From NCBI GenBank assembly GCA_017654855.1, contig CM030334.1, positions 3,410,001 to 3,474,000 on the forward strand: 64,000 nt of DNA. The letters are read 5' to 3'. The notes under the pieces are model-generated. The model ran no database searches. It was given only the letters and a program-made list of their open reading frames with translations, and had not been told where the DNA came from. Source of the stretch: Podospora anserina (lineage: Eukaryota). Shown piece after piece: positions 5,501-48,607 of the stretch (positions within the stretch are counted from its first letter, which is position 1; every line of letters starts with the position of its first letter). The translations under genes were made by a program, and so were the position numbers.

Positions 5501-7408
5501 AGCTCATTGATGATAGCATCTGTTGACGGGATGGAATTGTCCCGAGCGGTGTCGACGTCGTCTTTGACGGCAGATGATCTGCGATGAGTGACGGGACAGG
5601 GTCCAGGGTCCCTGGTGCTGCCCACCGAACAATCACTGCCGGGGATTTGGAAGCCGAGATCTCGGGGTTGGCTGATGCGGGGCGGCGAGGACCGTTGGAA
5701 GGCCAGCCTTGCGCGGTCTTGACTCCCGCTTTGGGTCTTGACTCCCGTGTCATCTATGGTAACCAGTTGTCAGTTACAATCCTCGTAATCAATGTCTCGC
5801 ATGCCGTTCTGCATCAGAGTCAACACGAGACCATGCAGCTTGTCCGAATGCCTGCATATGCCATCCAGGGGCATTTTTTCTTACATCGTTTGTCATCTGG
5901 TTTCACCACCCAACTCACCGCCCAGGTGTTCTTGGCATTGAATCCGGACCGGGTCTGGACCGCCGAGGCAACCCTTTGTCAACCTGAACACACAACACAC
6001 TACAGCATGACATCACTGGGCTGTAGCTTGAAACGAATTCGTATCGCGGCCGAGATGCCATTCGCTGGGTTGGGTAGTAGCCTGGAAGCTGGGTGCAAGA
6101 TTGGTTCTCATCTTGAAACGACTCCGAGTCTACGGGCACAGGTACCGTTTGTTTCCTGTGGGCCGGATGACGGGATGGGGTTGTGAGCGGAAAAGAAAAG
6201 CTGTCGCATGGGTATGCAAGAAGAAAGAAGCTCGACGTTTGGCCGAATTGGACAGCCGATGTGGTGTGCAGATGATTGGTGGGCGAATGGGCGGCGGGAC
6301 GAGCTGCCACTTCTTTGCTTGGGACACGCCTGCCCAACGTTGACCCAATCTTGTGTGTTCACACCCTCATTCTCTCGAGGCACATGAACCAATGGTACCA
6401 TCCATGCATTTCTCGCTGATCATCCAAGTCACGGGTGCTGCAGTTGTTGACCTCAGAATCCTTCCACATAACTTGGTGAGTTTTGTTCTGTCTCAGAATC
6501 AGTCGAGAACGGTGGTGGTGAGTATCCTGATGCACCGCAACGGCAAGGCACACTACCTGGGATACATGGCCGCACAAATCATTGAAGAGAGTGCCAAATT
6601 GGAGGAAAGATGGCTTTTCTTTCGGCTGTGTGTGTGTGGGCCGGCCGTTTCGTGAGCTAAGATTTTGACAGTGAGATCAATTGGACGAGAGCTGGCCTTC
6701 CTCCCCTTGTCGTGCGGGTTTTGCCACAAGGTACCGATCCACTTTGATACCAAAAACTGCAGGAACCTCGAACAAGGCGTCTTTGCTGCGTGATTGGTCG
6801 AAAGCATCCACGGGAAATGCGGGCCAAGCCATCCTTCAGACTCGCCAATCCCCGGATTGAACCTTGGTCCTTAGGAGCTTAGGTGGGTTGGCACGTTGGG
6901 TGCTGGGGGAAGGGCCGCGTTTGTCATGGGGGAGAAGGCTCTCACCCAAGTCTCTGATAAATAGCCAGATTGTTCCCAAAACTTTTCGCTTGAAGTTTAT
7001 TAATCGGGGACTTCATCATCTATTCAGAGATTCATCAATCCGTACTGGCATTAGTTGCTCGTTCTACGTTCTTCAACACTAGTCCGCTGTTTCTTCACAG
7101 CACGTTGGATTCCCAGGTCATTTAGCTTTCCAAGTCCTCTTCAACAGGCCATCTTCAACAAAAAGATCTTGGAAGAACTTGGAGTCCCAGTGCAAAGGTT
7201 TTCTGCATTCTCGTCATTTTCTTTGTCGAATAGACGCAAAATCTGGATCTGCTCTCATCAGTAAGTCCAAGTTGCTGATTCCACATCACAATCTTATCTC
7301 CGTCTGGCTGCTCACGAGCGGGAGATCTCCGCCCAGGGACCTGGTCTCACCCCACCCGTTTCTTAAACTGACACCGTCCAATCACACAGGCAGTGACGCA
7401 ACAACATC

Positions 7409-11135: not shown

Positions 11136-11656
11136 ATGGAAACCAACACTTCATCGGACTTCTCAAGGTGAGATTCACCTATCCACGACACCTTACCCAA
11201 CCGCAATATTATCACCGCACAGCATCAATCTGTTTGAATCTAAAAGCAGTCAGGCTTGCTAACCTTTTCTCCTGTAGCCAGTCCAGCAATCCTATCTTGA
11301 CACCGCGGACAACCTCTGCCACTCACAACACCGGCATCTTTGGTAACAACGACAAGCACGAGTCTACAGCTAGTTCGCACAACAATAGCCCGTCAATGCC
11401 AACCACAAGTCCAAAGCCCGAGGAGATCCAAACTGAGCCAACTGCAGCACGCAATTCCGACATTCTTGCATCTGCCTTCACCTCTTCAAGCTTCGATGCG
11501 GACAGCTCGCTGCATGGCCGTTTCCAAGACGCACCCCACCAGCACCCCAATCCCTACAGCCGCATCGGTTGTTACACCGTCAAAGCCCAGCAGCTGATTG
11601 ACAACTTTGACCAGCGGTTCGACCCCGAACACAACACCATCGATAAACCCGTCTAA
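11136..11656 (+). CDS. Small protein A of cluster, join(11136..11167,11278..11656), 136 aa
   Basis: TATAAATATA near 11023; ATG in TCAAGATGG; phase-2 intron GTGAGA...GCTAAC...TGTAG joins METNTSSDFS in frame to ...DILASAFTSSSFD...CYTVKAQQLIDNFDQRFDPEHNTIDKPV*. Confidence 0.75.
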
Positions 11657-14427
11657 TTCCCGTCAATCTCGAGACAGCATCATGCAGTTTGCGCCAACTT
11701 CACACCGAACAATTGCCATGAGCGGGAAAGAGGGCTCTTTTTTTCTTTTCGTTTTCTTTTTTTGTATTCGATTTTGCATTATGATCATGGTGTTGCTTTT
11801 TATGTAATTGAGCTTTGCCGCTCTATTTTTCTCCTTGGTGCATCCGCTTAGATGATGGTCAACATAAGTTGTTTGACAGGTACCTAGATGTCTGGGTCCA
11901 ATCCAGAGCCAGCGATATTATGACTTACACAATCTGTTCTTTCCTGGTTTTATAGAGTGGGGACGAATGGCCGGGATCGACTGGGGTAGCGAGGGTAGAT
12001 GAAACTTGACGGTTGTCATTTGCGGGGGATGAATGGCTGGAAGAACATGTGGGGGGCAAGTTTGCACTTCTTTCGGTATTTTGCATAGCGGCCGTTGTCG
12101 TTCTTGCTCTTACAGAGAGAGAATTGGCACACCGTTCTTGGGAAGACCACTAGCGACACCGCGTTGAGAATAAGCTTTCATCCGTACATTTTAGCTTTCA
12201 GTTTACAATTTCAGAGTTGGTGTATTGAGGAATCCTGTATCGAGAGCTACCCTGGACCAGCAAAGTCTATGGAATGGAAATCTGCACTGTAAGCAGCAGG
12301 ATTTGCACACATCACCGCGACGTTTACCGATGACTTATTACTCGTGCTCCGATATTATTGTCTCCCATCACTTCTCCGCTATGAAGGCTCTCAGAATACA
12401 CACCAATACCAAGCGAAACAGGATAATTACACGACACAATAGCGCTCATCACGGTACTGCGTAATTACTTCTGTAAGCTTTCAGTCACCTAACTGCCACT
12501 TGTCCAACATCTGTCAGGTTGCTCTTGGACACCCGCCAACGTTCATGCATACCAGACTGCCGGTACGTGTCACCCAAATCTGCACGCTTTGGGAGGCCTA
12601 TGCATGTTCCCGCTCGGTTTTTTCCTTTGGGATTAGCCTGGTGGAAAGTCAACCTGGTGGGGTCGTGGCACCTCGTTTCTCCAATATTCCCTGCCTGCCC
12701 ACCGACAATCTGCGCTGGCCCGAAAAAGGTGCACTTGCAGCTTTTTAACGGAACAAGTTTGAATCGGATGAACGCTGGTTTGGGAAAGCCTACATGGGAT
12801 ATCTGCAGTCCAAGATTGATAGCGTACAGATTGCGGAGGATGCGACTTGCATGGCATGGCCGCTTGTTTACTAGCCTGGGCCCTGTCTGCCTGTCAAGTT
12901 GAGACTTTTACTACTCCTGGGATACATTCTCGACATCGCAGGTCATCGCTTCTCCTCTTTCTACATCCCTTTCTACATCCCACCGCAGCGGCATTCGATG
13001 CAGCCCGGTCATCGTCAGCTGGATACATCAAGCGGGCTTGCTATACCGGATTCCATTTGCATTATTTGTGGTACGATACGCATAGGATCGAGGTAAATAG
13101 ACGGGCAGGTATTTGATCATGGGTACATCCTGCAGAGTAAGCAACGCAGTCAGGTACCCTACCGTGACGTCGGGCTACAATTTGGTAATCACATCCCGGA
13201 CGCTCTAGATACCTACACTGTCCATATAGGTCTACACATGACAAAGCCGCAAGGAGCTGCCGAGTGATCTCGAGGTGCGAGTGGGGACAAATGCATGTGC
13301 ATGCCATTTTGTCGAAGTGCAGCCTTTGTTGCAGATCATCTTGAGCACTCGAGATCAGATATCCTCTCCGGATCAGGAATACTTTCCGGGGTCATGGATT
13401 TGATTGGATGAGCACCCATCAAGCGCATGCAGTGCGAGGGTGGGGCCCTGTAGCTGGTCCGAAGTTGCCTTGGTGCATGTCCGCCTTCCATTGTGGCCGC
13501 TCTCCGGCCTTATCAGCCCTGCTGGTCATGAACAATGAATTAACAGGAAGCTTTCGTACCATAATACGGGCTCATAACTTAAGCCTTGGAAGCAAGCTGT
13601 AGATGTTTGCAACTTGGAGTCCCGTAGTCTCTGTTATCCAGTCACAGTTGAGTCGATCGCTATTAATAGGGAGTTGAGATAAATGTAAAAGGTAAACATG
13701 AACAATGAACGGGGTAGTGAGTGGATAGGTAAGGATGTGGTGATACACCCCCGGCCACTCTGCCGGCTGTGATGATTTTGGTCGCACGTGCGGGGCAGCT
13801 TGCTGCAAAGCCCAGAAGAGGAGGTGGCTTGATTTCGCTCCCGCCACACCCGCCCCTCTAGTGTCTAACTGTGTGCTACCTGGTAGCTTAAGACTTTACG
13901 AAACTTATTATATGGAAGATTTTGATACCCATTCCCTCTTGCCGGAAACCAACAAAAACACCTGTGGTCATCTCCCCAGTGAATTCCAATTGATGGTGGT
14001 TCCATGAGGTATCTTGAGCACTATGTAGCCATTTCCAAGCCCACGCACGATGAATCTTTGGTCACTGTCTACCTACCAAATGGGGTTCCAGCGCAAGTTG
14101 AGCCAAACTGCTGGATCAATCACAACCATCCGAAGTAGCCTAGCCGTGATCCATCGCTGCACGCGCTGCCGGGCGGAGGGGTGGGAGACGGTCTGCACAC
14201 CTTATGCATCCGTGCGGCAGTGAGCCCACCTACACAAGTAAACGTACAACGGTGTCTTGCTAACTATATATCGATCACCTCCAGCTCTTTTCTAGATGAG
14301 AAGACATCATTCTCTTTTTTCATCCCAAAGTTCCTTTCATCTCACGATTCGAAGCTTTTTCCAGAGTCAAGTTTTACTTGCTCGTGTCACATTGTATCCC
14401 ATCACAGACAGCAGATCCATATTCACC

Positions 14428-14859
14428 ATGCCCTCCACCTCCAACACCAAGCTTAGCACCTCGGTAACACACAACACCAAAAACTCAATGTTGGTCGTCA
14501 TTTTACTTGCCTCGTATCCCACTCTTCCAACATGATTTTAACAGTTATTTTCTGCTTGTAGCTCTCGATACCCCCAGCCTCTCTCAACCCAGTCACCATC
14601 GACAGTCACCCCTTCCGCAATCAAGAAAGCGTCACCCAAGAAGAAGCGCAACAACGCCATGTTGGAGTACTACCTTGCCGAGTCTCCCAGAGACGGAGCA
14701 AACATGTACTGTCGTTGTCACTCTGGCTACCATCCAACATCAACCCCGTCGTCGGCGCCGTCCCTTTCTTCGGCCATCACATCCCCCAAGAAAGAGTCGA
14801 CCGCCTATGCTTCCAAGGCCGCGGATGATTTTGACACTGCATTTACCGAGAATCGATAA
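14428..14859 (+). CDS. Small protein B of cluster, most likely join(14428..14489,14562..14859), 119 aa
   Basis: ATG in TCACCATGC; phase-2 intron GTTGGT...TTTAAC...TGTAG (alternative 14464-14544 also in frame) gives MPSTSNTK...KKASPKKKRNNAMLEYYLAESPRDG...AYASKAADDFDTAFTENR*. Confidence 0.7.
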
Positions 14860-16059
14860 AGAAAGGGATTTTTCTCTGTTGCGGCACGGTGCTGGTCATT
14901 CTCAGGCGGCGCGGAGCGGAGCAAAGCTCGGGTGACACACCGGAGCAGACCCACATTTCCGGCGCGGAATTCATGGTCAGTCATGCGGAGCTCGGAGGCT
15001 GTTGGCGGCGCGAAATATGTGATGAAATTGATGATTGGCTGAAGCCACGACAAAAAAAAATTGGATCTTTTTTTCTTCTCGGTCTGTTGCAGCGGTTGAT
15101 CGGCGTTTTATGCGGGTAGCTAGCTGGTTGGACGGACTAGTTTCTCAACTTGGATAATGTTTGTACAATACTCTTATTTTTTTTTAATTCATGCTCCTAT
15201 CACTGTGACCTAATAGTCTTAACTCCTGCTGTTCAAGACATAAGACATCCATTGTACCTAGTTCGTTCTTTTGGTATAAGCAAGTCTAGCGATACCTCGG
15301 TGCGACCCGCACTAACAGATAGTCTTTTGGTGAGAAAGCAACACCTAATATCGAACAGAACAAGGCTGTCTCGTGCAGGAATTGGTAAATGGATAAATAT
15401 CCCCCTTACATATAGTGTACCGTCTCTTACCCCGAAGGCAATCGGCAATTAGTTATACAATTTCTCCTTGATCGGTGCGCTAGTAGAGCAGGTGCGACTT
15501 GATACTATGCTTGTCGGTAAACCTTCCACGTTTAAGCCACGCTCGTCACTATTCCGCAGTTGCTGTTGTGCTACCAAGCATCTTTATGGATTTAACCCTG
15601 TCCCGGAGCTTTGTCCCCCACTCTGCTTGCAGATGGAGTGGCGTTGTAATTAAACGATCAGGACGGAATCTACAGGTTGAAAAAGACATCATTCCGTAAT
15701 GGGTAGGTTAGCGCCGAGGACCCCGATTGTTGCATGGCCAGCCGGATCTACGAGTGCATAGCTTGCTTGCCTGGGCAGAGCGTGGCTCCTGCATGGCGAT
15801 TGTGGGTAGCGTGTGCCAACAGTTTTTTGCCGGATGACCGCAAGGCTGCTTAATGCGACGTCCCCTATTGTCAGTTCTACTCTATATCTTCACATCCTCC
15901 TACACCGTTAAGGATCCTCGTAGAACCGTCTCTATTCATTTTGTGCCGACGACTGGATAGTTGTCCCAGAGCACCCCCCTTTGTCGCTTTCATTCACCTA
16001 CACGACTGCAAACTCACCTTCCTGACTCTGCTCTATCTCAGCGGAACCACTCCCAAAAG

Positions 16060-16469
16060 ATGTCTGCCCCTTCAACATCTTCCTCCTCGAAACTTCGGTA
16101 TGTTTTGTTTCCGTTCGGGCTCCCGGTGTCAAGTTGTGTGATCTAATAAATTTTCTTATTATCAGCATCGAGTTGAGCAGTCCAACTCTATCCAGCGCAA
16201 CCCTTGGTCGCTCCCAACTCCAAAGCTCCAACAACCTCAGCAGCACGACTACTTTCAGCATCACCGCAACAAGCACCACCACATCATTGCACCAACTCGA
16301 GGGCTTCATTGAGCAAGACATGTTCGACGATGGCACTATTCATAGTAGAGTGCCGGAACATGAAGTCCATTTCGATGAAGACTCGTGCGTCCCCTTCTAC
16401 GAAGCACGCGCACACGCTGCCATCGCGCAATTCGAGATTGCTTTTGCAAGCGGTGATGAAGAGCGCTGA
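16060..16469 (+). CDS. Small protein C of cluster, join(16060..16097,16166..16469), 113 aa
   Basis: ATG in AAAAGATGT; canonical phase-2 intron GTATGT...CTAAT...ATCAG joins MSAPSTSSSSKLR in frame to ...HQLEGFIEQDMFDDG...FYEARAHAAIAQFEIAFASGDEER*. Confidence 0.78.
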
Positions 16470-16811
16470 AGGGAGATTGGGCTGGGCGTGCACAGTGTGG
16501 CCTGTTTCGCAGCCTCAACTCCCATGATCCAGCCAATCAACTCGATGCAACAGGGGAGGGGTGGCTGCCTGTTTTGGGGGTGGTGTGCCAACAACTCCTA
16601 CCCCGCACCCCGCCGCCGGGCGGCCCTGCCCTGCCTGCCTGGTACTTCTTTTCATCCTCCAGCAAAAGCGAAAATTGTTGCTGGAGATGTGTGGAAGCCA
16701 TCTTTTCCCACCAGCTCCTCGACATAGCCATCGACAATCAACACCACCCCCACCTTCCCATCCAACAGCTATATCTCTATAATTTCTCTCATTTCTACTT
16801 CCATCACTTAT

Positions 16812-16949
16812 AAACGGAAAAAAAAACATTGAAATTTTTTTTTGATAAAAAGAATTTGATAAAAAAAATTTTAAGAAAAGAATTTGAAAAAAGGAATTTG
16901 AAAAAAAGAATTTGAAAAAAAAAAAGAAATTTGAAAAGAAAAAAAAAGA
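16812..16949. repeat. Degenerate A-rich minisatellite, unit ~GAATTTGA(n)
   Basis: About 6-7 imperfect copies of (a)gaatttgaaaaa(a) read directly. Confidence 0.85.
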
Positions 16950-17714
16950 CATCACATCCTGTTTTATTCTCCCCTACTCTTCTTATTTAAGTTTTTCCTG
17001 CAGCACTTGGCTTCTGAGAAAAAAATCACAAAAAAGGCACTATATGGGGTCTGCGCTTGGTGCAAGCTTCACGGGCGAGCGAGCTGACGTCAAAAGTGGA
17101 TACGAATGGTTTCAGTTTCGTGTCAGGGATCTACTTTCTTCAGTTTAAACTTTTTGGATTGTGATTTTAGGGATAGCACGAGGAGAGAGAGGCGGTTCAT
17201 CAATGGCACATGACAGCAAACGTAAACAGGCACAACGCATATGATGACATGGCGGGGGTGTAACTGGTTAGAGGATGTGGACTTGGTTTCTGTTGATTTA
17301 TAGCAGATGGGTGGGTAGATAGAATATCTTTTTGTGGAGTCAAATATATCCCGTTTTCTCCCACCACAAAGCACGGATGGGTTAGATGCATGTGCAGGGT
17401 ACCTATCTTCAATCTTCACGCATGTCCAAATTTGAGTTTGCACAGGAGTTAGTTAGTCGGTTCCATTCGACTGTGAGATCATCATTCTAAGGAGCACAAA
17501 CACGCAAAGTTGTGAGCAAAGTATTATTTATATATTACGTTAGACTCTAGACAACAAACTCACCTACCTGGGCCGATATCAAACTTACCGTATGCATAAA
17601 TGAAATCCAAGCACTTACCTTGAAACCTACGATCAGCAAGTTCCTTTCCTCTACTCCAAGATATTCCGACCGTACTCATCTGGCGCCGTCAGCATAGTGA
17701 GAATGAGGTCATGA

Positions 17715-18709
17715 TTACCGGCAGCCCTGGCCTCGATGAGCTTGTCCAACGCGTTCCGCGTCTTCAGGTTCCGCGTCTTCAGAATCCGTCCTCAGGATAT
17801 CAGGATGCAGCGGCTCATCAACGAAGTGCCACTCTTGCATGGAGCACAAATGAGCCGGTATCCGCTTCAAGTTGGGTGGTACCAATACTTTTGGCAAGAG
17901 ACCGGGGAACAGCCTGTTGAAGTCCAACCCCAAACCCACGTCCTTTCAGGAGAAAATGATTGGGGCATCGGTGTTGCCACATAAAAGCTGATGGGCAGGG
18001 CGGTCACGGTAGAGGTTGCGCTGGAACTTACACTCCACGCACCTCCGTTCGTGACGAGCCTTGCCAACGATGTGAGGGCTTGTCTCTTCAATGCAGTTTT
18101 CGTGCTTCCTGCGAACTTCCTCTACATCTTCGTCATCATTCATCACCTGTTCACTGCTTTGATCCAGTCGAAGGACGTCTGATACTGCTGCCGGTACTGC
18201 TCGGTGAGTTCTCTGTCTTGCTCCGCTCGCCTCTGAATCGATGAGAGCCTGCTCTCTGTCGTGGTTGCAAGTTTCCAATCTGTGAGGGCCATCTTCTGCA
18301 CTTCGGAACTTCTCATCCAAGGTTTCCTTGTGGCTGTGTTGAACAACTCACTGTCATCAAACATGGCATTCGAGGGAAGTTTCATGCAACCGAAACAAGC
18401 GTACCGGCTGCTAGCCCACCAGTCCCGGCCACGGTTTGTCATGGGTGGTATGGCCTCGTGTAAAAGACGAAATCTCGGGTGCCGAAATGGGTAGCCTGGG
18501 TAGTCGTCCGGCTCCGGGCCACCATCCTTGGGAAGAAGTTCGAGAGCGAGTAGACGCTGTTGAAAGTCATGTTCAATAGGGTTGATAGATTTGCGAAGGC
18601 CCTTGGAGGTTTGAGAAAGGGCGATGAGAGAAACGGGATCGAGGCAGGAAATAAGGTCGATGAGAATATCCACTGGGAGGGAGATTAAGACGTCCTGAAC
18701 AGAAGCCAT
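17715..18709 (-). pseudogene. F-box protein gene, disrupted by a frameshift and an in-frame stop
   Basis: N-terminal F-box-like LISLPVDILIDLISCLDPVSLIALSQTSKGLR and YACFGC. The ORF stops at 18143, coding-like sequence continues in another frame (GKARHERRCVECKF), hits TGA at 17946-17948 and resumes in that frame (FNRLFPGLL). 3' limit uncertain. Confidence 0.65.
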
Positions 18710-20395
18710 GGTGGAAAAGTTCGATAGTATGTTGTAGCTGTGTACTGATTTCGGTGTTGAGGCGTGCTGAAAAATATGATGATTCGAAAAGCAAACCGTA
18801 TGAGAGGGGTATGCGCTGGTCTTTTATACGAGACATTTTCATGATACTCCGGCGGCCAAATTCAATGTTTGATTGGAAGGACAATAGGCATTGTCTATGC
18901 AAGCCAAGTGGAAGGCCACAAAGAAGGATGATTCGCTCCGGTAATAAAACAAAGAAATTCATCTTCGCCTGCTTTGTGGGCCAAGTCGCGAGGGGCGCCA
19001 AAAAAGGGCTCCATCTCCCCGTTGCGCGTCGTCGACTTGGAAACAGTGAAGGTCTGGGAGATCGTGCAACAAATATGAACACTGTTCTGAGGACATGATC
19101 AGGCAGACAAGCATGTCCACTTTCATTGTGCTGCCTCCAACAGAACATACGAGAGTTGGACTGATATTGTCAAGTAGGAGGGGAACAGCGGTTTTTGCTG
19201 ATGATCGGCATGGGCGACTGCGAATAATCTGATACCGTCGTAGTCTAAGCGAGGGTGAGGTCGCATGAGAGGGACAGGAAGTCGCCCATGAGTCGAGTTC
19301 ATGCGGTCGATATCGGGGAACGCGCAGGGTCGAGAGTTGGCAGTGCTCGAAATCGAAACCAGCCGAGGCCGAGGAGAACGCTTGTCAAACTTCAAGCGTG
19401 ATGTCAGACTGCGCTGTAGAAAGGATACAGCTTTTGCCTTGCAGCCAAGCAGGTAATGCTGGGGAGTTCGTCCAGTTTCGGGGGGTCGAGGGTCTATTTC
19501 CACAGTACTTTAATCCATCGCAGTTTTGTCTGGTATGTACAATGCTGGACCGATGGTATGCCGCGTAACAGGAGAGTGAGCGTGGACTTCATGTCTCCAC
19601 ATGCGCGCGGGCATTGCATATTTGGAAGCCAGTCGAGAGGCGGCTTGCAGTGGCGATGGTGAGGAGATGTCTGAGAAGCTCGACTGAAAGGACCGAAACG
19701 GCATTGGCAGGGTGAAAGCATTGTCGTCCTCGAAAAGTCGAGGATGGAAAGATGGTTAAGAGCACCCGAGGGTCTTGGACTTAATATGCCACCTGAAGGG
19801 CCAAGGGCACAGTTGTGTATCAAACCACGCCAGAAGCGTGGCCTGCTTGTGTCTAATGAGAAAGGAAACAAGTCCAAAAAGCCCAAAGTACGCCATGCTC
19901 AATCCCATGCCGAGTTGGAATACGACGGAGAGCGTGCCCGTCGAAGGATTGTAAGGAAAATCAGGCCAAGGGTCAGCTGTACCCATCATCAAGAGCTTCC
20001 AAGTTCCTGCCCTTCCAGGAGGTTAAGATTCAGGAGCTTGCCGAGCAAGTGCCCATTGGTCAGATTCCCAGGACACTGACGCCAAAGGCCGCTGGGATTG
20101 TCATGTTGATTCAGACATCTGCAGAATGTCCAAATCGGAGGCGACGTCGATGGAGAGGTTTCAAGAGAATGTCCAGGAATTCATTGCGCTCAAAATCTTT
20201 GAATTGGCAGGTTTGATGTTCAGAGGCTGCAGCCATGTGTTGATGTATGGCAAAAAAGGGTGTTGATTAGAAGCACGCGGTCGAAGGTGGTGTCCATAGT
20301 TGGTCAGAGTCAAAAAAAACCCACGAGTGAAGAGGTAAGTGTAAGTCTCTTACTCTGTTTCTGTTTGCCAAGTAATGCGGCTCTGACACACTATT

Positions 20396-20425
20396 GCGAA
20401 CCATTTGCGAACCACTTGCGAACCA
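20396..20425. repeat. Tandem 11-mer GCGAACCAYTT, ~2.7 copies
   Basis: gcgaaccattt gcgaaccactt gcgaacca read directly, ~550 bp upstream of small gene D. Confidence 0.8.
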
Positions 20426-20965
20426 CAAGGCACCCAACAACCTCACCTCTCGCCGCTTTAATGGGCGGTTGAGGGTTAGGGTTATCTGCTGCGTAAGTGT
20501 AAACATTTCACTTTCTCACGACCATACAACTTGCCATGGATGGCAAGGGTCTTGCTGCGCGGGAGTGCGCACGTTTGGATCCGCTCGACCAGTCTTTCAA
20601 ATAAGAAGCATTCCCTCGATCTCCTATATCACGGTAGCCATAGCCTTCCATTCTGTTCAAGTTGAGCACTTACAGGTTCTTTGGAAGTCGTTCAAGATTC
20701 CCGAGCTGTTTTAGCAACCTTCTTCCATTCTTATCCAAGTAGATTGTGCTCTCCCTTCTACCTTTTCCAGCTCACTTCATCAATTGACCCGGATCTTTCC
20801 AGCCCCAACCATCAATCGCTCTACGCCCCACGATGCAGCATCTTCTACCTGACAACAACCCTCAACCCGTGGAAGGGCAAATGTAGGTTGCAATATTTCC
20901 CATTGTCCTTTTTTCCCCATCATACCCCAGTGGGCTGCTTTTCTCTCGGGTCCATAAATACTACC

Positions 20966-21271
20966 ATGTCTTTGTTTGTGTTCTTTCCTTGTCATTCAGA
21001 TGCCAATCACTTGATATCCATCCGATCTTTCCGCGACCACTCACACATTTCAAGACCTCCACGCACGAACCAAGCCCCTCCCCCACAAGCTATGACCTTC
21101 ATCTCGGATTGCCTCAACACCTTCCTCCAGCAAAGCGACCTCGCCGATCCAATTGCGTACGGCAGATTGGTTGGTTCCAATGCAGACCTAAAAACCCGCA
21201 CCCGAATCTACCTCCAAAAGGCAAATGAAGCTATACAGACTTTTAATGCTTCATTTGCCGCCGGCAATTGA
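20966..21271 (+). CDS. Small protein D of cluster, likely join(20966..20973,21055..21271), 74 aa
   Basis: ATG in CTACCATGT; putative phase-2 intron GTTTGT...CTCAC...CAAG (81 nt, stop-free); product MSLPPRTNQAPPPQAMTFISDCLNTFLQQSDLAD...IYLQKANEAIQTFNASFAAGN*. Confidence 0.65.
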   Translation: MSLFVFFPCHSDANHLISIRSFRDHSHISRPPRTNQAPPPQAMTFISDCLNTFLQQSDLADPIAYGRLVGSNADLKTRTRIYLQKANEAIQTFNASFAAGN

Positions 21272-22839
21272 TCTTTCTTTCCCTTTGGGGTTGGCGTCTC
21301 TCTCGACCAATAACAGGTTCCATCTGCACATCACTATGCCAATAAGCCGGCCCGTTAAGGCTTAATAACGCATCGACCAACCAATGGATGTCATATCGAT
21401 TGCTGGTGGCTGCGGGGCGACAGAAGTGCAGGGCCCGCCCACCCCATTCCCCGACATCATGACAGTCCTCTTTCCTCCCGATATTTTTCATCGCGGGTTA
21501 TCACCGAGATGCAATTCTCATCCAGTGGCACCTTCCCAGCTCTCTTCGATGTTCTTCACCACTTTTGCGGACCCGCTGAACCCAGTATTGGCCCGCTCGA
21601 AACCACCGCCTTCCCAGATGTCGCATTTCCGGAGACGCAAAGAACCTATCCTCGCGTGCCAATCGTGGACGGCAGCCGGCCTTGTGGTGTTCCCAGCGAT
21701 GTGGTTCGGCTCCGTCATCCCGGTTCTTGGTCACGTGCCGCGGGTGTAACGGTGGACAAGCCTACCCGCACCGTGTGGCTCATACGGTGTACCTGTTTAA
21801 GCCCAGTGCACGAATGTGGTTCGTGGGGACTGTTAGTCAAGCCAACTTCAAGCACTGGCGAGTGGAACTGAAAGGGAAATGGAACCAAAATAGGTGCGGA
21901 TACAATTGTTCTGGGTATTTACTGGATTTCTTTGGGTGGTGTGTAGAATAAGATGGAATTCTCAGCACAGGTTGCATGTTCTATATCGTTGAGTTGGTAC
22001 CTACCGTATGGACCGATCTACTTTACTCTTGACGCCAAATATTATTTATACCGCTACCCCTTCCTTCATGTTCCCCGAAACCAAGGGTTTTATGTAGTAT
22101 ATTCTCAGTTTAGTCTTCTGGAAATAAACCCTTTATGCTTCTTAAGCGGAGAACATCCTGGTGACGAAAAAGAACAAGATGGGCAGTTTACTGTGGGGCA
22201 AGACTTAAATGTGGATAATCTTCCAACTCTTCTCGTGCGCACCTATAGCGGTGGTCCTCCCTCACACTCATCTTCATGGTACAAGCTACGTACGGTCCAT
22301 CGATCTCCTGCTCCGATGCTCATCATTTTCCGTGCAATATAATGGGGGCAGTCGGAGCAGTTGTTAGTATGGTTGCGCTTGTTAATCTGACTTTGAGGTC
22401 AGGAAAGCCGATTCACTAAACCATCTCTGCCGTGAAATACAGCCCTGGAGGTTTTCTCGAACTCGTCGATTAACTTACCCAGCCCCAGTCGATTCTACAG
22501 CGGGTGACTACTGTATCACTTGATTCAACCCATCATGTCAACACAACAGGACAATGGGACGCCGCTAGGAACTGCGCAGCAAATGTAATACACCTGAAAG
22601 ACAATTGCAGAAACTTGATAACCCGTTTAATAACCGACGATCGAGGCAGCGATAGCACCGCTTGAGGGTTGCCATCATCACGATGGACTACAGCACATAA
22701 GGCAGAACATACAAGGACACATCTCTAGGTATTTTCACGGTGAATCTAGGTTACAAAACTATTAGCTAAGTACATCCACCCCTAGTCCTCTAACCCATCC
22801 AGGAATGTTAACGAGCTAACCCACCCCTCCCAAGTCCCT

Positions 22840-25818
22840 CTACTTAACCTCCGCCTCAAGCCTTACTCTCTCCTCGCTCAGACATCGATCCCTCATCTGC
22901 TTCAGCGTAAAAGCAACCGGATCAGCAAGCTCTGTATTATACGCCTGTACCCTCCCCTCAAACGACTCGTGAGCCTGCTTGTCGAAGACGCAGAGCAAAC
23001 ACCCACAACAGCTCTCAAGTCTCCTCTCAACACGCTGTCGCTTTTGCTTGAGGTGATACTTTGTCGGCGTTTCTACGTTCGTCAAACCCGCCGTCCAATT
23101 CTTGATTCGCTTCAAAACTTCCTCTTCGCGCCGTCGTCTCCTCTTCTCCTCCCCCCGAGCCACTACTTTGTAGTGGTCAGGGGGATGGGATAAATTCGAC
23201 AGATGCCACCGAGGGTTTCGTCTCGGCCATCCGTTGCTCTTCATGGTGTCAACCAGCGGAGTTATGTCGAATCCGTGCTTCGCCAGCCAGCTTAGATTGT
23301 CGAAGCGGAGTTCTCCGGGAATGTGTTGTTCTGGTGTTAAGCTTGGTTCTGTCGTTGGGCCTGTACACGGTCCAGGTGCTGATCTGTTGCCGCTTGTTTG
23401 GAGGAGCGTGCGGATTTCTTGGCTAAACCACGTTTCTAGCGGGAAATCAACAATGGCGCCGTGGTGGAGGAGGAGCTGGGCTACACCGACGTGTCCGTGT
23501 CTGCATGCTGCGCGTAGTGCGGTGCAGTGTCGTGTTCCGTGGGCGTTGACGTTGGCGTTGTTGTTGAGGAGTGCTTCAACTATGCTGACGTGACCGCGGG
23601 AAGATGCTATCTGCAGCGCGGTCGCCTGATAACGATTGCCGAGAGATCCCATGTCTGCTCCTGCGTGGAGCAACTGACGCACAACTTCTTCATGTCCCTG
23701 CTCAGATGCTTGATGGAGTGCGGCCCGGATGTATTGGTTTTTTGTTGCTTGGTGGGTTAAATCCATTTCCGCCCCCAGCCTTTTGAGAAGAATCTCCACG
23801 ATATGGCCGTGGCCGTAGTAGGACGCAAGTTCTAGAGGAGAACCATACAAGCTTGCGATTTCAGAGGAGGAACCCCATTTCTGTTCAAACGTGACGTCAG
23901 CCCCTGCATCCAGCAGCAACTGGACAATCGCACCGTGGCCTTTTGCTGATGCTACCGCCAAAGGAGTGCCATATCTCCCCGTGGAGTCGTTTAGGGAGAC
24001 GCGCCGTGCAATCAGTACGCGAAGTCGACCCTCTTCGCCCCGTGATGCTGCCTTGTATGCGCTCCAGCTGTTGGTTGCAGTCGCAGGCTCTTCGTTCGGG
24101 CTTTCCATTGGGAACTGCAAGTCCCTTTTCCAGTTTGTGACCTTGTCAATCGCATCCCGTTTACGCTCCAGCGGCTTCTCTGGGACAAATCTGTTTGCCA
24201 GAAACCCATGCTGGTTGAGTGCCAAGAGGCCGGCTCGAACCTCGGGGCTTGCACAAGTCGTGATCCACTGCTCGTAGGACATGTCCATCAATCGTGATCG
24301 GTCCATCTCCCCTTCCTCGTCCATCCAGGTCCGAGCGGCGATTTCTGCCGTCGGGTCGTCGGCAACAACAAGATGACTCGGCGGATACAGGCCCCCGGGG
24401 AGGGCCCGTAGTTTGGCTGAAAGTCCTGCTTCCCCATCTTCGAAGCGCCTCAATTCCGCGTCCTGAAAAGACGCCTTGTATGCCCCCTCCGTGGTTATTA
24501 CATCAGGCAAGCGCGTGCATGACGAAAATAGCAGATCGGGGTGTTCCTCCCGTAGTTTCAAACTGACATCGATCATGACCCGATCGACGAGACTTTCAAA
24601 GATGACTTTCTCGTCAACCAGCAACTCGTCATCGAGCGGGTTTCTGGCGATATTCTTGGCCCTGTCATAACGCAGGCCGAGGCCACTGTGACAGATTTCC
24701 AGAATAAAACTGTAAGGCATCCCAGGAACTCCCGTGTCGATACCGACAAAGGATTCGATTTGCTTCAGGCACACACTGTAAATGTGCTCGTAGCTCCGTC
24801 TGCCCCATAGAGGATTTGCCGGCCGCGTATTCTTTGCCAAATCGACGATCGGGTCCGCGTAAAAGACCATCATCAACGGGGGAAACAAGTGAAGATGCTG
24901 CAGTTTGAAGCAGTTTCGCCCATACGTCTTGTTCGACTCCCTCTCAATCTCCACGTAAAGGGCATCGAAAGATTTGAAGTTGCAGTTGTAACCCTTCAGC
25001 ATCGTGGATTCAAACATTTTCCAGGCCAGCGTGTGCTGCAAACCTCGTGAGTTTTCCGATGTGGGGAACTGCGTCTTGGAGATGTGAAAGGAGTAGTAAG
25101 GGATTGCCTTGGCAAAGTCCTTGTTTCTGAAGTCGATTTGCAGAGTGCGTCCCACGGGGTTGCGCGTTTCGTTCCAGAGCATCTCCAAGAGACCTGGTAT
25201 ATCTCCTTCGGCGTTCAAGTATGTGCTGGCGAAGGCTGTATGCGATGGCATTTCCTCAGCGTCTGTGGCATGTTGTATCCTAGCGTCCGGGCTAGGGCTC
25301 GAACTCAGATGGCCATCATCATGTGCCTGCTTCCGTGATACCGGTCCCGTCTTGACACCCCTTATTACGAGACCCGTTGTAACTATTTGGTGAAAAGAAT
25401 AGGCGTCCCAAATCTCATCCAGGTTCGCGATGCGCTTTGGGTGCAATTCATGGGCTATGAATGCGCGGTCCAGCCTATCCAAAACAATCGCGTCCACCTC
25501 GTGTAGAAAGAGACCCTGGCTTGTTCCATTGGCGATTGCAGCGAAAGAGTTATCGATGATCCCTGAGGCACGTTCGTATAGTCCGCGATGAGAGAATACA
25601 TAGCCATATTTGTTCTTCAGCTCGAACTTGCCCGATGCTGATTTGATCTGCAAGTTTCGTGGGCAATAGCTTTGCTTCTGTCCGTCCCAGGTATATTTCG
25701 GGGGGAGTCCGGGATATTGTCGGTTATGTGGGAAGCCCTGGACTTTGTAGCGAGTGTTCAAGTCGGGGTTTATACTCTGCATTGTGCTTGTGGTAGGTGT
25801 CCGCCGCCCTGGGATCAT
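22840..25818 (-). CDS. GDPD/PLC-like phosphodiesterase domain fused to C-terminal ankyrin repeats, ~992 aa
   Basis: N-terminal VFSHRG...DNS...EVD...IAHE..PKR resembles GDPD blocks (AHRG, ENT, ExD, HD); ~6 ankyrin repeats (GTPLAVASAKGHGAIVQLLLDAGAD, TALQIASSRGHVSIVEALLNNNANVN). The ankyrin call is firm; the GDPD call rests on motifs only. Confidence 0.8.
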   Translation of the reverse strand: MIPGRRTPTTSTMQSINPDLNTRYKVQGFPHNRQYPGLPPKYTWDGQKQSYCPRNLQIKSASGKFELKNKYGYVFSHRGLYERASGIIDNSFAAIANGTSQGLFLHEVDAIVLDRLDRAFIAHELHPKRIANLDEIWDAYSFHQIVTTGLVIRGVKTGPVSRKQAHDDGHLSSSPSPDARIQHATDAEEMPSHTAFASTYLNAEGDIPGLLEMLWNETRNPVGRTLQIDFRNKDFAKAIPYYSFHISKTQFPTSENSRGLQHTLAWKMFESTMLKGYNCNFKSFDALYVEIERESNKTYGRNCFKLQHLHLFPPLMMVFYADPIVDLAKNTRPANPLWGRRSYEHIYSVCLKQIESFVGIDTGVPGMPYSFILEICHSGLGLRYDRAKNIARNPLDDELLVDEKVIFESLVDRVMIDVSLKLREEHPDLLFSSCTRLPDVITTEGAYKASFQDAELRRFEDGEAGLSAKLRALPGGLYPPSHLVVADDPTAEIAARTWMDEEGEMDRSRLMDMSYEQWITTCASPEVRAGLLALNQHGFLANRFVPEKPLERKRDAIDKVTNWKRDLQFPMESPNEEPATATNSWSAYKAASRGEEGRLRVLIARRVSLNDSTGRYGTPLAVASAKGHGAIVQLLLDAGADVTFEQKWGSSSEIASLYGSPLELASYYGHGHIVEILLKRLGAEMDLTHQATKNQYIRAALHQASEQGHEEVVRQLLHAGADMGSLGNRYQATALQIASSRGHVSIVEALLNNNANVNAHGTRHCTALRAACRHGHVGVAQLLLHHGAIVDFPLETWFSQEIRTLLQTSGNRSAPGPCTGPTTEPSLTPEQHIPGELRFDNLSWLAKHGFDITPLVDTMKSNGWPRRNPRWHLSNLSHPPDHYKVVARGEEKRRRRREEEVLKRIKNWTAGLTNVETPTKYHLKQKRQRVERRLESCCGCLLCVFDKQAHESFEGRVQAYNTELADPVAFTLKQMRDRCLSEERVRLEAEVK

Positions 25819-27068
25819 GTCCTGGAACCATTTGTGTCGTAGTAATGTAACTTCGACTTAGGATTAGAAGAAACATGACAGGTACCTAACTTCTAGCGGG
25901 ACATCACCCCTTTTATAGTGACCGTAGACATCAAACCCCATGGAGGCTAGGGTTGTTCCCTAGGCCTTACACATCATCACCACATCAGCGCTCATACGTT
26001 TGCAATTAAAGCCCTCGCAATCCAATCCCTGGCATTGAAACCCTCTCAATGAGAAACGCCGCAGTTGGCCGCAATTAGAACCCTCGCGAATGAGGCGTGG
26101 CCCGGTATTTAAAGCTTCCATGCCCGGGTGGGGGTGCGCTCGATGAATTGCATGGGCGCGTAGGCAGCAACAATTAACACCTAAGGTAGACTAGCTTATC
26201 AACCCGGTCGTTGTGCTATATCTCTCTATTGTAATCCTTGGTACCCAGCGAATGCGGAGCCTCGGATTGTGCCTGGGAGAATACTACCAGGCCCAGATGT
26301 GGCCAAGGCCGGACCGGGCCGCACAAGATGGCCGAATCCACGCTCGTGGGATGAAACGCAGGTGAAATATCCCAACAGAAACACCAACTTGGTCGATAAA
26401 TCATACCAGGCTGAGGTATAAGAAAAAATGCATCGTCATAGAGAAGAGCAGAGCCTTCAGTTCATTACCACCCTGGAGAAAGCAGTCTTTGCTTTGAAGA
26501 AAAACTCTACCCGGCACAAGTTAGGTAGATTTTGAACTTCAAGCTTAATTTTCAAGAAATATATGGTTGTATTAGGACGAATGTTGACCAGGGTATTAAT
26601 GGATGGGACAATGGCTCGTATTGCAAGCCAGCAAAGGTATAGTTAGACGTCAACTTACACTTTCCTCGCTATCTTCAATAAGAAATAGGCCTATCCAATC
26701 TTGAAAAGTCATTTAGCGGCCATCAAGATCCCTACACGCTCGGAGGAACATAAATATGGCGAATGAATGTAGAATCTATTCAAAGTTGAAAAGAACCGCC
26801 ATCAAAAGAATGTCCTTCTAGGGGCTAACCTGCTCGCAGCTTGACCCCTCCATTACAAAGATTATATCCTCCTATCGTACAACAAAATCTCGTCCAAAAA
26901 GCTGGGGGAATGAACTGGTGGTGATGGTATTAGGTGCAGTGTATTAAGTGATATTAGTGCTTGTTGTGCGGTGAGTGAAGAATGTGTTGTGAAAAAAAGG
27001 GGTATTAATGCTGAAGCCGCATCGCTAAAGTGTTAAAATGCTCCTCCTCCTCCTCCTTCTGTCACAAC

Positions 27069-32812: not shown

Positions 32813-35430
32813 ATGGCCCAGGCCGGAATATCACCTTTACCTATCTCGATATCGACGATTATGCCTGCAGACATGATGGCTCATCTTGGATCAGGCCAAG
32901 GACAGCCCGGCCTCGTCATGTATGGTCTCTATGGACTAGATACGTTCGAGCACGTCGAGATCGATGAATATCAGGTTCCGTTCCCCATCAACCGCCGTCG
33001 ACCATGCTCAAGCAGTTTTCCCAAGCCTTGCGTGTTCGACAGTATGGCCTCCTCACCATCACCAGGCTCTGTTACAACTGCGCCGTCCAGAGAAGGCTCT
33101 CGGATCGGACGACCACCGCAATGGACAGTTTCACGATCGCGAAAGCTGGCTAGGCTATACCTCTATACGACACTTTCCATCGAGAGGATTATCCGGGTGC
33201 TTGAAGATGACGTCTTCAAACCGAGGTGCGGGGATCGGGAGTTTGCAGGGCTCTACACGGCGCTGACAGATTTTGCAGGAAGAATTCAGCTCAAAAGACG
33301 ATTCACAAAATGCTGGACAACGACCCCCGATATCTTCGACCCGAGTCACGGATTGAAATGAACCAACGCATCAGTAATCTTGCTGCCTCTGTCACTCGCC
33401 GAAGAAAGAAGACGGCAGTTCCAGCCTACGAATCAAGCCTTCATGGAGCAACCATAGACGCCTTGTATGGCGAGGTTAGTGGTAGTACTGTGGACCAAAA
33501 GCTGGGAATCCTGCTAACAATATTTTTCATTTACAGAAAGAACACAATCTGGCAAGGACTGAAATTTCGTCAGTATCCGGCTCAAGCCGTAGGGTAGAGG
33601 AAGGCCCTTCCTTTGACTTTGCTGGTTCGCCCGACGCACTCCTTAGTCCCATTCGATGGTCGATACCCCTGAGCGCTCAGACGACAGACGTCACCGACTT
33701 TGCGGGCTCTAGTGACAGAGGTTCAGCCATGGTCCAAGACCTCAAGAGGAGGCTATCAGACTGTTCCACGCACTTCGCCCACCAAATCACATCGTTGATT
33801 AGAGACTTTACTATTGCTGGAAGTTCACAAGACGAATTATCTACTGGCCGCCGACCTTCTGAGGCTCTCAGTGACAGGTCTGGGCACGATGAACTTTCTG
33901 AGTTGGGGATCAGTAACGAGCCATTCGAAGCCTTCCCCGAGCCGGCCTTCGCAGTACCAGGAGACTTTTTAAGCGCGCACAGACGGAACTGTGCCGACTT
34001 TCCAGGGCAGCAACATGGAGTCGGTGACTGTTGGTGCTCCATCGCCGGTGATACCTCACTGGACCAGAACTCTTGGTTGATGCCGACGGGTGAATTGAGT
34101 GTGCGTGCACGCCATGTTCTTAATCATCCTTCTCCAGGTAGTCTCAGCCTCCTTGACAGTTTCGGGAACACGCCTCTACACCTCTTCGCCACGCTAGAAG
34201 GGTACCAAGACACCCTCTTCAGAATGGTGCTCAACTGCGATGTCGAAACCCTGAAGATTACGAACACTGCTGGCCAAACGTTTCTCCATACGCTCAACCT
34301 GGATTGGTTCCTTAACCTTACAGACCCGTCGACACTACTGAAACAACTTCTTTCACACATCAGAGACTCAGTTCCAGACCTTGTTCACGAGACCGATGTG
34401 TATGGACGCACCTTCTTTCACCGCGCCCATTCCCTCGTTCGGGACCCAGAAGCCCTTGCCAACCTCTTCTCTCCGTTCGACTCTCTTCGGGCAGCCCGTC
34501 GTGAATCCTCTTGGCAGCGGCATCACGGGCGACCAAGGCCCATATACTCCCCCAAGAAGAGGAAATAACCTTTCACCTCAAGTTGAATACCTTTCCAGTT
34601 CCGCCGGTCCTTCACGCGGTCATTCTGCCTCGCCCAGCGACAACGACTCGTTCTTAGCCTATCATGCTCGTCTTGTCGAAGTCATCCAGTCATCCTACAA
34701 CAACCCACAGGTGGAGGACGCTGAAGGCCGTAACGGATTACACTGTCTCGCAGAGGCTATTCTCAACCAGCAGTCCATGAACCGCCATGTCTCTTCTTCT
34801 GTCGGCGCCCCTTCCATCCACCAGCGACCCAGTCTCAAACGAAAACTAGACTCTTCCAAAGAGTCAATCACTTCTTTTCCATCACCTTCGCCTTCCTCCA
34901 CCGCTTCTGCTTCGACCGCCTCGAACGAATCTACCCTCACGACTCGACTTCGCCATCTCACTGGCCTTCTCCACCACTCGCACGTCGATGTCAACGCCTA
35001 TGACAAGTCAGGCAACACACCTCTTATGGCTTTCATCACACATATTCCAGACGATCAGGACGACAAATCAAAGACATTACTCGCCATTCTTGAAACTATC
35101 ATTCGAGCAAAGGGGTGCAAGATCGAGGCTAGGAACAGAAGGGGCGAGACAGCCTTGTTGGTGGCGGCTAGGCTGGGCAGGAAGGTAGCACTAACAACAC
35201 TGTTAGAACATGGAGCCAATGTTCACGCCCGAGATGTGGATGGGAGGGGGGTGTTGGAGGTGGTGGATGAAGTTTGCAAGGGGGCTGGGAGGGGAGAAAG
35301 AGGGAAGGGTGCTGGCAAGGGGGACATAAGCCTGTATGCCAGGGCGGAGGCTTGCAGGGTTCTGTTGACTGGGAGGAGGGATTGGGGTGTTGTTGGAAGG
35401 CCTGGGGTAGGGAGGGAGTGGAGGGTGTAA
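32813..35430 (+). CDS. Ankyrin-repeat protein with N-terminal helical (GRPPQWT..RKLARLY) region; introns 33226-33278 and 33475-33536; apparent frameshift near 34500
   Basis: Two canonical introns join the ORFs in frame; ankyrin-like motifs GNTPLHLFA, GQTFLH, GRTFFH, GRNGLHCLA, GNTPLMAF, GETALLVAARLG lie in two frames that meet at ~34500 with no usable intron. Confidence 0.75.
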
Positions 35431-47782: not shown

Positions 47783-48607
47783 AAGTCTAAGGAGCCCTAT
47801 ATTCTATGTTGATGTCGAACAGAATAGTGGACCGACGGAATTGATGCCCAATGGCTCCCGCTTATGAGAGATAGCTGTAGGAAACTCATTACTGCATCTA
47901 ATCAACAAGCTACTGGTGCTACCTAAGGTACACACCAATGAATGACCCCTCAGCACAAGAAAGATAGTGTCGAAACAAAACAGCACAGAGTGAACCTGAA
48001 AATGACGTAGGTAGGCAGTATTCAACCCATCAAAATGGTTTGAGCAGGATGGCGGAAACTCCGCGTGCCAATACCTAGACCGAAAACCAGACAGACAAGC
48101 ACGGCACCTAGATGGGGAACCGTGGCGCAACAACTAGCAGAGCTGCAGATTCCACACCTGCATCACCTCAGGTGTTACGCTCCAGGCTCCCTTCCTACTG
48201 CGTGGAGGTGCACCATTTCTATTCCGTCAAGTCGCGGTCGGTGAACTTTCCCGCGTTCCATCTCAAATATCTTGCTGACATGTGTAGGAAGACAAGAAGA
48301 GGCCTTTTTTTTCAACAGAAAACTATTGCCTCGTCGCACGCCCACAACATGAGCATTGAGAGCATTCTTTGCAAAGCACGGTATTGACAGAGGCTCGCCA
48401 TGCCCAACCGCAACTTCCATCACCGCCGATGGTGTGCCTATTGATGCGCCTTCGATGACAACCAGGCACACAGCCGCAGCCACATTCATGCGGGGTTGAC
48501 CACCTGTTGGATTAAAAGAAATCGACCTGACCTTATGGGACTCGAGCACCCGGATTTTTCCTTTGTTTTGACGACTGCTACCATTGCATTTCCCAGACTT
48601 CCTCATC

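Follow-up and report, generated by a model that had tools for sequence, protein, structure and literature searches.

A probable tandem array of four anciently diverged genes from an unnamed family of small fungal proteins in Podospora anserina

The 64-kb stretch of Podospora anserina DNA analysed here (the window, positions 1-64,000, to which all coordinates refer) contains, at 11.1-21.3 kb, four small genes on the same (+) strand, designated A, B, C and D. The locus raises the question of whether these four genes belong to a single protein family and, if so, what such proteins could do. A first-pass annotation, made by eye from the sequence, had described them as co-oriented, spliced and highly diverged paralogues that have phase-2 introns and share two short motif blocks. 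The gene models as first read do give the stated translations, and their GT..AG introns follow 32, 62, 38 and 8 coding nucleotides in A, B, C and D, respectively; the intron of D is still in phase 2 after the correction of its first exon described below. The products comprise 136 (A), 119 (B), 113 (C) and 88 (D, corrected model) residues. Taken together, it is very close to certain that the four genes are paralogues, that A, B and D are transcribed and spliced, that a wider family exists and that no catalogued family accommodates it.

Common to the four products is a C-terminal domain of ~55-60 residues, which is predicted to consist of a short helix (L-x-x-F/Y-L-x-Q), a loop (D-D-G-T/S-h-Y/H-G-R ... 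P-x-P) and a long Ala-rich helix with the consensus F-Y-x-A-R-A-x-x-x-I-x-x-F-x-x-x-F. The two blocks noted previously correspond to the two predicted helices, while the loop motif between them, DG-T/S-x-Y/H-G-R, which was apparent in an alignment of the four proteins with the first homologues, had been overlooked. The loop Arg, present in 77 of 78 sequences, forms the best-conserved column in the family and is followed in helix 2 by Ala (75/78), Tyr (72/78) and Phe (70/78), with the loop Asp and Gly conserved in 64 and 63 of the 78 sequences, respectively. Constraint is thus not confined to two motifs, as had been proposed, but extends over a continuous domain whose top residue lies between them. 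In all four genes the motif ends 4-11 codons ahead of the stop codon. The most diverged copy is that of gene B, with ~12 extra residues in the loop and a helix 2 that is shorter by 3 residues. The strict pattern Y..[KR]A...I..F...F matched the six-frame translation of the 64-kb window three times, solely in A, C and D, and was absent from each of 100 shuffles; a looser pattern added B alone. The motif therefore performs better than in shuffled sequence, and as both patterns were devised after it was already known, the scan with an external hidden Markov model (HMM) serves as the independent test.

This external HMM was built from 78 family members, with the window's own and near-identical sequences left out, and was run against 1885 six-frame open reading frames (ORFs) of the window. 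It recovered C (E = 9.7e-31), A (4.2e-14), D (1.1e-10) and B (1.4e-3), with the next ORF at E = 1. An HMM derived exclusively from the 22 A-type sequences identified C (6.8e-13), D (3e-7) and B (1e-3), while one restricted to the 56 C-type sequences identified A (3e-8), D (6.9e-10) and B (3.6e-3); across clades, these models recovered 22/22 and 56/56 members. Gene B ranked fourth in every scan, with a gap before the next match. By these profile scores the window holds exactly four copies of the family, B being a marginal one. In a poorly resolved tree (83 rows, 70 columns) none of A-D is the nearest neighbour of another, which fits an old duplication. Gene A lies within a 24-row clade that includes members from other sources, and C in a different clade with its Cercophora and Triangularia orthologues, while B and D sit on long terminal branches (1.33, the longest, and 1.14, respectively). 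The clade-only HMMs and the tree support the earlier view that the genes are old, diverged paralogues. No DNA similarity was found between the loci (best blastn E 0.13-1.6), which confirms the earlier impression.

The wider family was defined by a profile search, in which the first profile included A-D, of 1.84 billion representative proteins of every length, with no length filter. The search returned 78 matches at E<=1e-3, of which 22 reach E<=1e-10. The 78 proteins range from 45 to 273 residues, and the domain is always at the C-terminal end. The members with a named source belong to Podospora, Cercophora, Triangularia and Biscogniauxia, thereby covering the Sordariales and (Biscogniauxia) the Xylariales, and all are called 'hypothetical protein'. 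Gene C shares 71-74% identity with hypothetical proteins from Triangularia verruculosa and Cercophora samala, and its annotated relatives in these two related genera are 113 and 134 residues long. The first-pass annotation had recognised no named family, which agrees with the Pfam scans: nothing was above the cut-off for A-D, none of 60 members had a family above the cut-off (scan at E<=0.01), and when 82 members were scanned at E<=10 no family was common to more than four, the one that reached this number being New_glue, a low-complexity match. A full-text search of the literature, which matched words, found no description of the family; one under another name is possible. Judged from sequence comparison, the family is real, conserved and uncatalogued.

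Evidence for expression comes from contigs of four runs, from four studies, which are presumed to be RNA although not so recorded; the presumption fits the GT..AG joints seen in the contigs, as expected of cDNA. In RNA-type contigs from three of the studies such joints lie exactly at the introns of A and B and at the acceptor of D. Among the four introns proposed from the sequence, that of A was recovered in three of the four runs and that of B in one, while for D, previously assigned exon 1 at 20966-20973 and an intron at 20974-21054, the acceptor (exon start 21055) was right and the donor was not, as the true donor is 20882|20883 in three of the four runs. The spliced 88-residue product of the corrected model is identical in every residue to the public protein P0008. 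The gene models, all on the + strand, are as follows.

11136..11167, +: gene A exon 1; start codon at 11136; RNA contig 11006/11031-11165, joined to 11276; N-terminus identical to that of the annotated protein P0004.
11168..11277, +: gene A intron; 110 nt, GT..AG, phase 2; joint in three of four runs (X1, X3, X8).
11278..11656, +: gene A exon 2 and stop codon; conserved domain at ~11450-11653.
14428..14489, +: gene B exon 1; from translation; RNA contig of run X1 spans 14285-14489 and 14562-14722.
14490..14561, +: gene B intron; 72 nt, GT..AG, phase 2; joint in one of four runs (X1).
14562..14859, +: gene B exon 2 and stop codon; domain at ~14647-14856.
16060..16097, +: gene C exon 1 (predicted); from translation; without an upstream in-frame ATG; the Triangularia verruculosa orthologue P0002 likewise has 113 residues.
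16098..16165, +: gene C intron (predicted from splice signals); 68 nt, GT..AG, phase 2.
16166..16469, +: gene C exon 2 and stop codon; domain at ~16284-16466.
20833..20882, +: gene D exon 1 (corrected); 50 nt; joint 20882->21055 in three of four runs; replaces 20966-20973.
20883..21054, +: gene D intron; 172 nt, GT..AG, phase 2; runs X1, X3 and X8.
21055..21271, +: gene D exon 2 and stop codon; domain at ~21086-21268.
20493..20802, +: optional 5' intron in the leader of gene D; GT..AG joint 20492->20803 in one of four runs (X3); contigs of X1 and X8 are unspliced there.

The model of gene A matches the annotated 136-residue protein P0004 at 99%, one residue apart, and the closest public proteins are those of the Podospora anserina species complex (99% for P. 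pseudopauciseta and 95% for P. bellae-mahoneyi). At position 11339 the RNA contigs of three runs carry A where the window has T, a Phe to Ile change in the disordered tail of gene A, and the window thus differs slightly from the sequenced strains. The start codon of gene B is ambiguous: ATG 14428 sits in a good sequence context, and a second in-frame ATG at 14296, in a poor context, would add 44 residues and lies within the RNA contig that begins at 14285. GC content at third codon positions (GC3) is elevated to 0.64 in A and 0.63 in B, and to a lesser extent in C and D (0.56 and 0.52, respectively). The four paralogues are unequally represented in the RNA contigs. The description of the genes as hidden was overstated, since public records from the Podospora species complex list A and D as hypothetical proteins, and orthologues of C are annotated in Cercophora and Triangularia; for three of the four, therefore, the gene or its orthologue has such an entry. 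The splice-bearing contigs of gene D extend at least 730 nt beyond its stop codon (21272-22000 and onward), reflecting either a very long 3' untranslated region or overlap with a neighbouring transcript. Directly downstream of gene C lies an A-rich tract of imperfect repeats (16790-16960), and close to it, at 16734, RNA contigs of three runs begin, preceded by unlike sequence.

Relatives in metagenomes provide a second example of a tandem arrangement. One scan identified seven loci, L001, L002 and L003 being one locus in three records; a further metagenome scan yielded 22 pattern matches and no confirmed relative. The L001-L003 locus, on a fungal contig, carries three complete same-strand copies at ~10.0, 13.5 and 16.2 kb, together with a partial or degenerate copy at ~7.0 kb, while L005 contains two copies followed by the contig end, and L006 one complete and one partial copy. 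The metagenomic copies all fall in one A-type subclade, indicating that the array arose through its own duplications, and tandem arrays with ~3 kb spacers seem to be a habit of the family. In L001 (~6900-7100) and L006 (~7200-7330) the first copy retains helix 1 and the DGSIYG(R) loop and loses the frame before helix 2, owing either to an intron inside the domain or to decay of the copy. No Pfam domain was detected in 25 long ORFs around the metagenomic copies, a context that thus provides no functional hint. The ratio of non-synonymous to synonymous substitution rates (dN/dS) is 0.32-0.61 between orthologous metagenomic copies, based on 11-27 changes per class, and 0.16 on the domain between metagenomic paralogues, where dS is saturated. 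These values indicate purifying selection, though not a strong one, in the relatives rather than in the window genes themselves.

AlphaFold2 models, built with 82-83 family sequences, place a short helix, a loop and a helix of 24 residues after a disordered tail; in gene C the helices are at exon-2 residues 38-49 and 71-94. The predicted local distance difference test score (pLDDT) is 94-97 for helix 2, 75-84 for helix 1 and the loop, and 52-64 for the tail, with a mean of 80.5 for a domain-only model. The prediction bears out the earlier proposal that the N-termini are disordered and the two blocks helical. Helix 2 is also amphipathic, as had been suggested, in A, B and D (Kyte-Doolittle moment 0.82-1.00), but not in C (0.07). 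Similarly, the N-termini of A-C are rich in Ser, Thr and Pro as described (combined fraction 0.33-0.39), whereas that of D is rich in Pro, Gln and Asn (Ser, Thr and Pro 0.22). Comparison of the model with the PDB by Foldseek gave no match at E<=0.001. An exhaustive structural aligner reached a best Z of 3.5 with the whole model, in which the long helix alone was aligned, and of 3.7 with the domain-only model, with a root-mean-square deviation >10 Å and generic coiled coils as matches. A homodimer prediction for the C domain scored 0.00 and was returned as 'no answer', which speaks neither for nor against binding. No signal peptide (maximal 9-residue Kyte-Doolittle mean in the first 40 residues 0.12-1.37) and no membrane span (no 19-residue window >0.59) were detected in A-D, and the grand average of hydropathy (GRAVY) of the four proteins is -0.38 to -0.98; they are small, soluble proteins of the cell interior. 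Two motifs recur in the tails, [ILVA][LVI]TP in 5 of 16 A-type sequences and T[LVA]G[RHYDL]S in 14 of 44 of the C-type, compared with <0.3 expected from shuffles. Gene A carries the L-T-P type and gene C the T-L-G-R-S type.

The stretch that contains the array is not otherwise empty of genes, as had been thought. An F-box ORF (PF00646, E 7e-6) that does not belong to the family occupies 18143-18706, between C and D, on the strand opposite to the array, and is covered in all four runs by an unspliced contig of ~2.3 kb (contigs span 17512-19787) with the highest depth in the region, which marks it as an expressed gene. A short fragment at 19929-20081 (+) matches the MCM OB domain (PF17207, E 2.2e-10); the RNA contigs over it match 19934-20077 only and carry unlike sequence on either side. 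The fragment has the appearance of a stray portion of an MCM helicase gene, attracting reads that derive from the genuine gene at another place in the genome. Two ankyrin-repeat ORFs lie at 22843-25857 (-) and 34342-35427 (+), and three ORFs encode HET domains.

454-2541, +: HET-domain ORF; the nearest of the three, ending 8.6 kb upstream of gene A.
45296-47803, -: HET-domain ORF.
48572-50377, +: HET-domain ORF.

The window is thus a variable neighbourhood of the allorecognition type. In this respect the array resembles the clusters of lineage-specific genes (LSGs) of Neurospora crassa, which are reported to be small genes without recognisable domains, grouped where HET-domain genes abound (Wang et al. 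2023, PMC10684091): A-D share the window with three HET-domain ORFs as well as ankyrin and F-box genes. By definition, the Neurospora LSGs are confined to that genus (PMC10684091), whereas the family of A-D spans at least two orders and four named genera and has a well-conserved domain.

Comparison with named families gave one lead. Proteins of Pfam DUF2406 (PF10295) are, like A-D, small Ascomycota proteins of ~100 residues, and a DUF2406 cluster was the nearest named one for two members in a language-model feature search of the ESM Atlas. Its scores of 0.86 and 0.81 lie below the bar of 0.9, and about one third of shuffled proteins attain 0.8. Membership was rejected, as DUF2406 is absent among the 25 families listed of the 26 found for 82 members at E<=10, and the cluster stands as a lead only; the literature found by word search did not mention DUF2406. 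The best sequence match of known structure is PHF10 (BAF45a) residues 154-223, in the PBAF structures 7y8r and 7vdv, which is not significant (E = 0.26, 14.6 bits). The PHF10 helix Y-x-K-K-A-A-x-x-A-x-x-F aligns to helix 2 of the domain, but the alignment is over this helix alone and is without a structural match.

Classical microProteins, such as the Id proteins and LITTLE ZIPPER, are small competitive inhibitors that mimic a domain of larger multi-domain proteins. The products of A-D are likewise small and predicted to be hardly more than one interaction module. Such a mode of action had been proposed in the first-pass annotation; in the strict sense of a domain mimic it is weakened, since the domain occurs in no larger protein: no multi-domain carrier was found among the 78 matches from the 1.84 billion proteins searched, the longest of which has 273 residues. 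Fungal precursors of ribosomally synthesized and post-translationally modified peptides (RiPPs) of the ustiloxin/dikaritin type have a signal peptide and repeated cores flanked by Kex2 (KR) sites, and are encoded adjacent to a UstYa/DUF3328 gene. A-D have no signal peptide by hydropathy and, on reading, contain no internal repeats or KR-flanked units, which weakens this assignment to the point of rejection. No DUF3328 gene was detected among the 58 long window ORFs scanned (chosen from 99 of >=130 residues); a tyrosinase ORF is located 29 kb from the array. The lack of a signal peptide and of repeats in A-D also led to rejection of a secreted-effector role.

The explanation that we favour, and consider probable, is that the locus is a tandem array of four anciently diverged paralogues from an unnamed family of small intracellular fungal proteins. 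Several observations weigh against this reading or weaken parts of it. Pairwise BLASTP among A-D gives nothing (E>0.3 or no match), such that paralogy rests on profiles and motifs; in the absence of both BLASTP and DNA similarity, the detection of the relationship by eye was a real catch. The region of gene C (15876-16643) is uncovered by the contigs of all four runs, a gap that speaks neither for nor against the gene, and the helix 2 of this gene departs from the amphipathic character of the others. The dN/dS values of 0.3-0.6 amount to weak purifying selection and depend on the few substitutions given above. The tail motifs were defined post hoc and are present in a minority of members. Finally, gene B may be decaying: it has marginal HMM E values (1e-3 to 3.6e-3), the longest branch and an odd composition, and no protein identical to it was found among the 78 library matches.

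Regarding function, the leading proposal, possible if short of probable, is that these intracellular proteins act in docking or regulation: the C-terminal domain, folded or folding upon binding, would dock on a conserved cellular partner, and the variable, low-complexity N-terminal tail in front of it would have a regulatory role and be open to phosphorylation at the L-T-P or T-L-G-R-S sites. A-D would accordingly be versions of a single adaptor or inhibitor that differ in expression. The conserved loop residues together with the confident helix prediction suggest a specifically recognised surface and hence a docking module, while a regulatory tail is suggested by the retention, in subsets of the family, of an L-T-P or T-L-G-R-S motif that resembles a kinase site. 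Binding, inhibition and phosphorylation are thus put forward tentatively, from conservation, helix prediction and tail motifs. A bolder version, which we regard as quite unlikely, holds that the domain is a new docking module that folds by itself, and that the arrays, with ~3 kb spacing in two distant fungi, encode phospho-regulated adaptors or inhibitors that compete for one conserved partner, every one of them expressed in a pattern of its own from a separate large regulatory region. In that version the shared partner might govern a switch in development or in non-self recognition, in keeping with the neighbourhood rich in HET, ankyrin and F-box genes.

Other explanations can be set against the docking-module proposal. 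That parts of the array are dead, with A and D working while B, and perhaps C in this species, are decaying or silent and kept only by linkage, is somewhat unlikely, and would be compatible with either an adaptor role or a partner-less one. The features of B listed above are what such a gene would display, as are its enlarged loop, the 3-residue deletion in helix 2 and a splice joint seen in one of four runs; yet in B the reading frame is open over 119 codons, the splice sites are correct, GC3 is raised and the transcript is spliced, and the high identity of C to intact orthologues in two other genera argues for function. Alternatively, the proteins may have no partner, acting as hydrophilic protective or structural proteins in the manner of hydrophilins, or associating with themselves or each other through the long C-terminal helix. 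Their strong hydrophilicity, evident from GRAVY and from a content of Ser, Thr or Pro of one third in A-C, and the fact that fold searches yield generic long-helix and coiled-coil matches alone are consistent with such a role, and multiple paralogues per genome would suit hetero-oligomers. The tails, however, are unconserved, there is no heptad-type coiled-coil signal beyond the one 24-residue helix, and the top conserved positions, the loop Arg, Asp and Gly, point to a specific surface, leaving the partner-less explanation unlikely.

A role of the C-type members as small metal-binding or redox proteins, in which a His/Cys-rich loop (H-G-R ... H ... H-P-H-P ... C) would coordinate a metal ion, was considered because the loop of these members, and of A, B and C, often contains His and Cys. 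We view this as very improbable: the positions vary across the family (Tyr 40 versus His 32 of 78, His 25 versus Asp 14 of 75, and Arg 45 versus Cys 10 of 78), gene D has none of them and no known metal-binding family was matched. Chance resemblance, with the ORFs representing non-coding transcripts or artefacts, is hardly credible. The motif was picked by eye and the four proteins do not find each other by BLASTP, but the strict pattern is unmatched in the shuffles, independent profiles recover exactly four of the 1885 ORFs, 78 relatives exist in a public library and the transcripts are spliced; the shuffles, the library relatives and the external and clade-only HMMs refute this explanation.

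The first-pass description of the locus is largely upheld, and its interpretation in part. For the annotation of this genome, the outcome is that the model of gene D is corrected, the start of gene B is flagged as ambiguous and member B is brought to light. More broadly, many small 'hypothetical' fungal genes are usually dismissed as orphans; here, four genes that show no similarity in pairs prove to form a single old family, which has a well-defined domain, is present in at least two orders of Sordariomycetes and recurs in tandem arrays. About 80 sequences give the family a clear profile, its helix-loop-helix structure is predicted with confidence and it has invariant residues suited to mutation, in a genetically tractable fungus, Podospora, from which the whole 10-kb array could be deleted. 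If the docking module proves true, the family would represent a new class of regulatory proteins and a new Pfam-type family; otherwise it would be an ordinary domain of unknown function.

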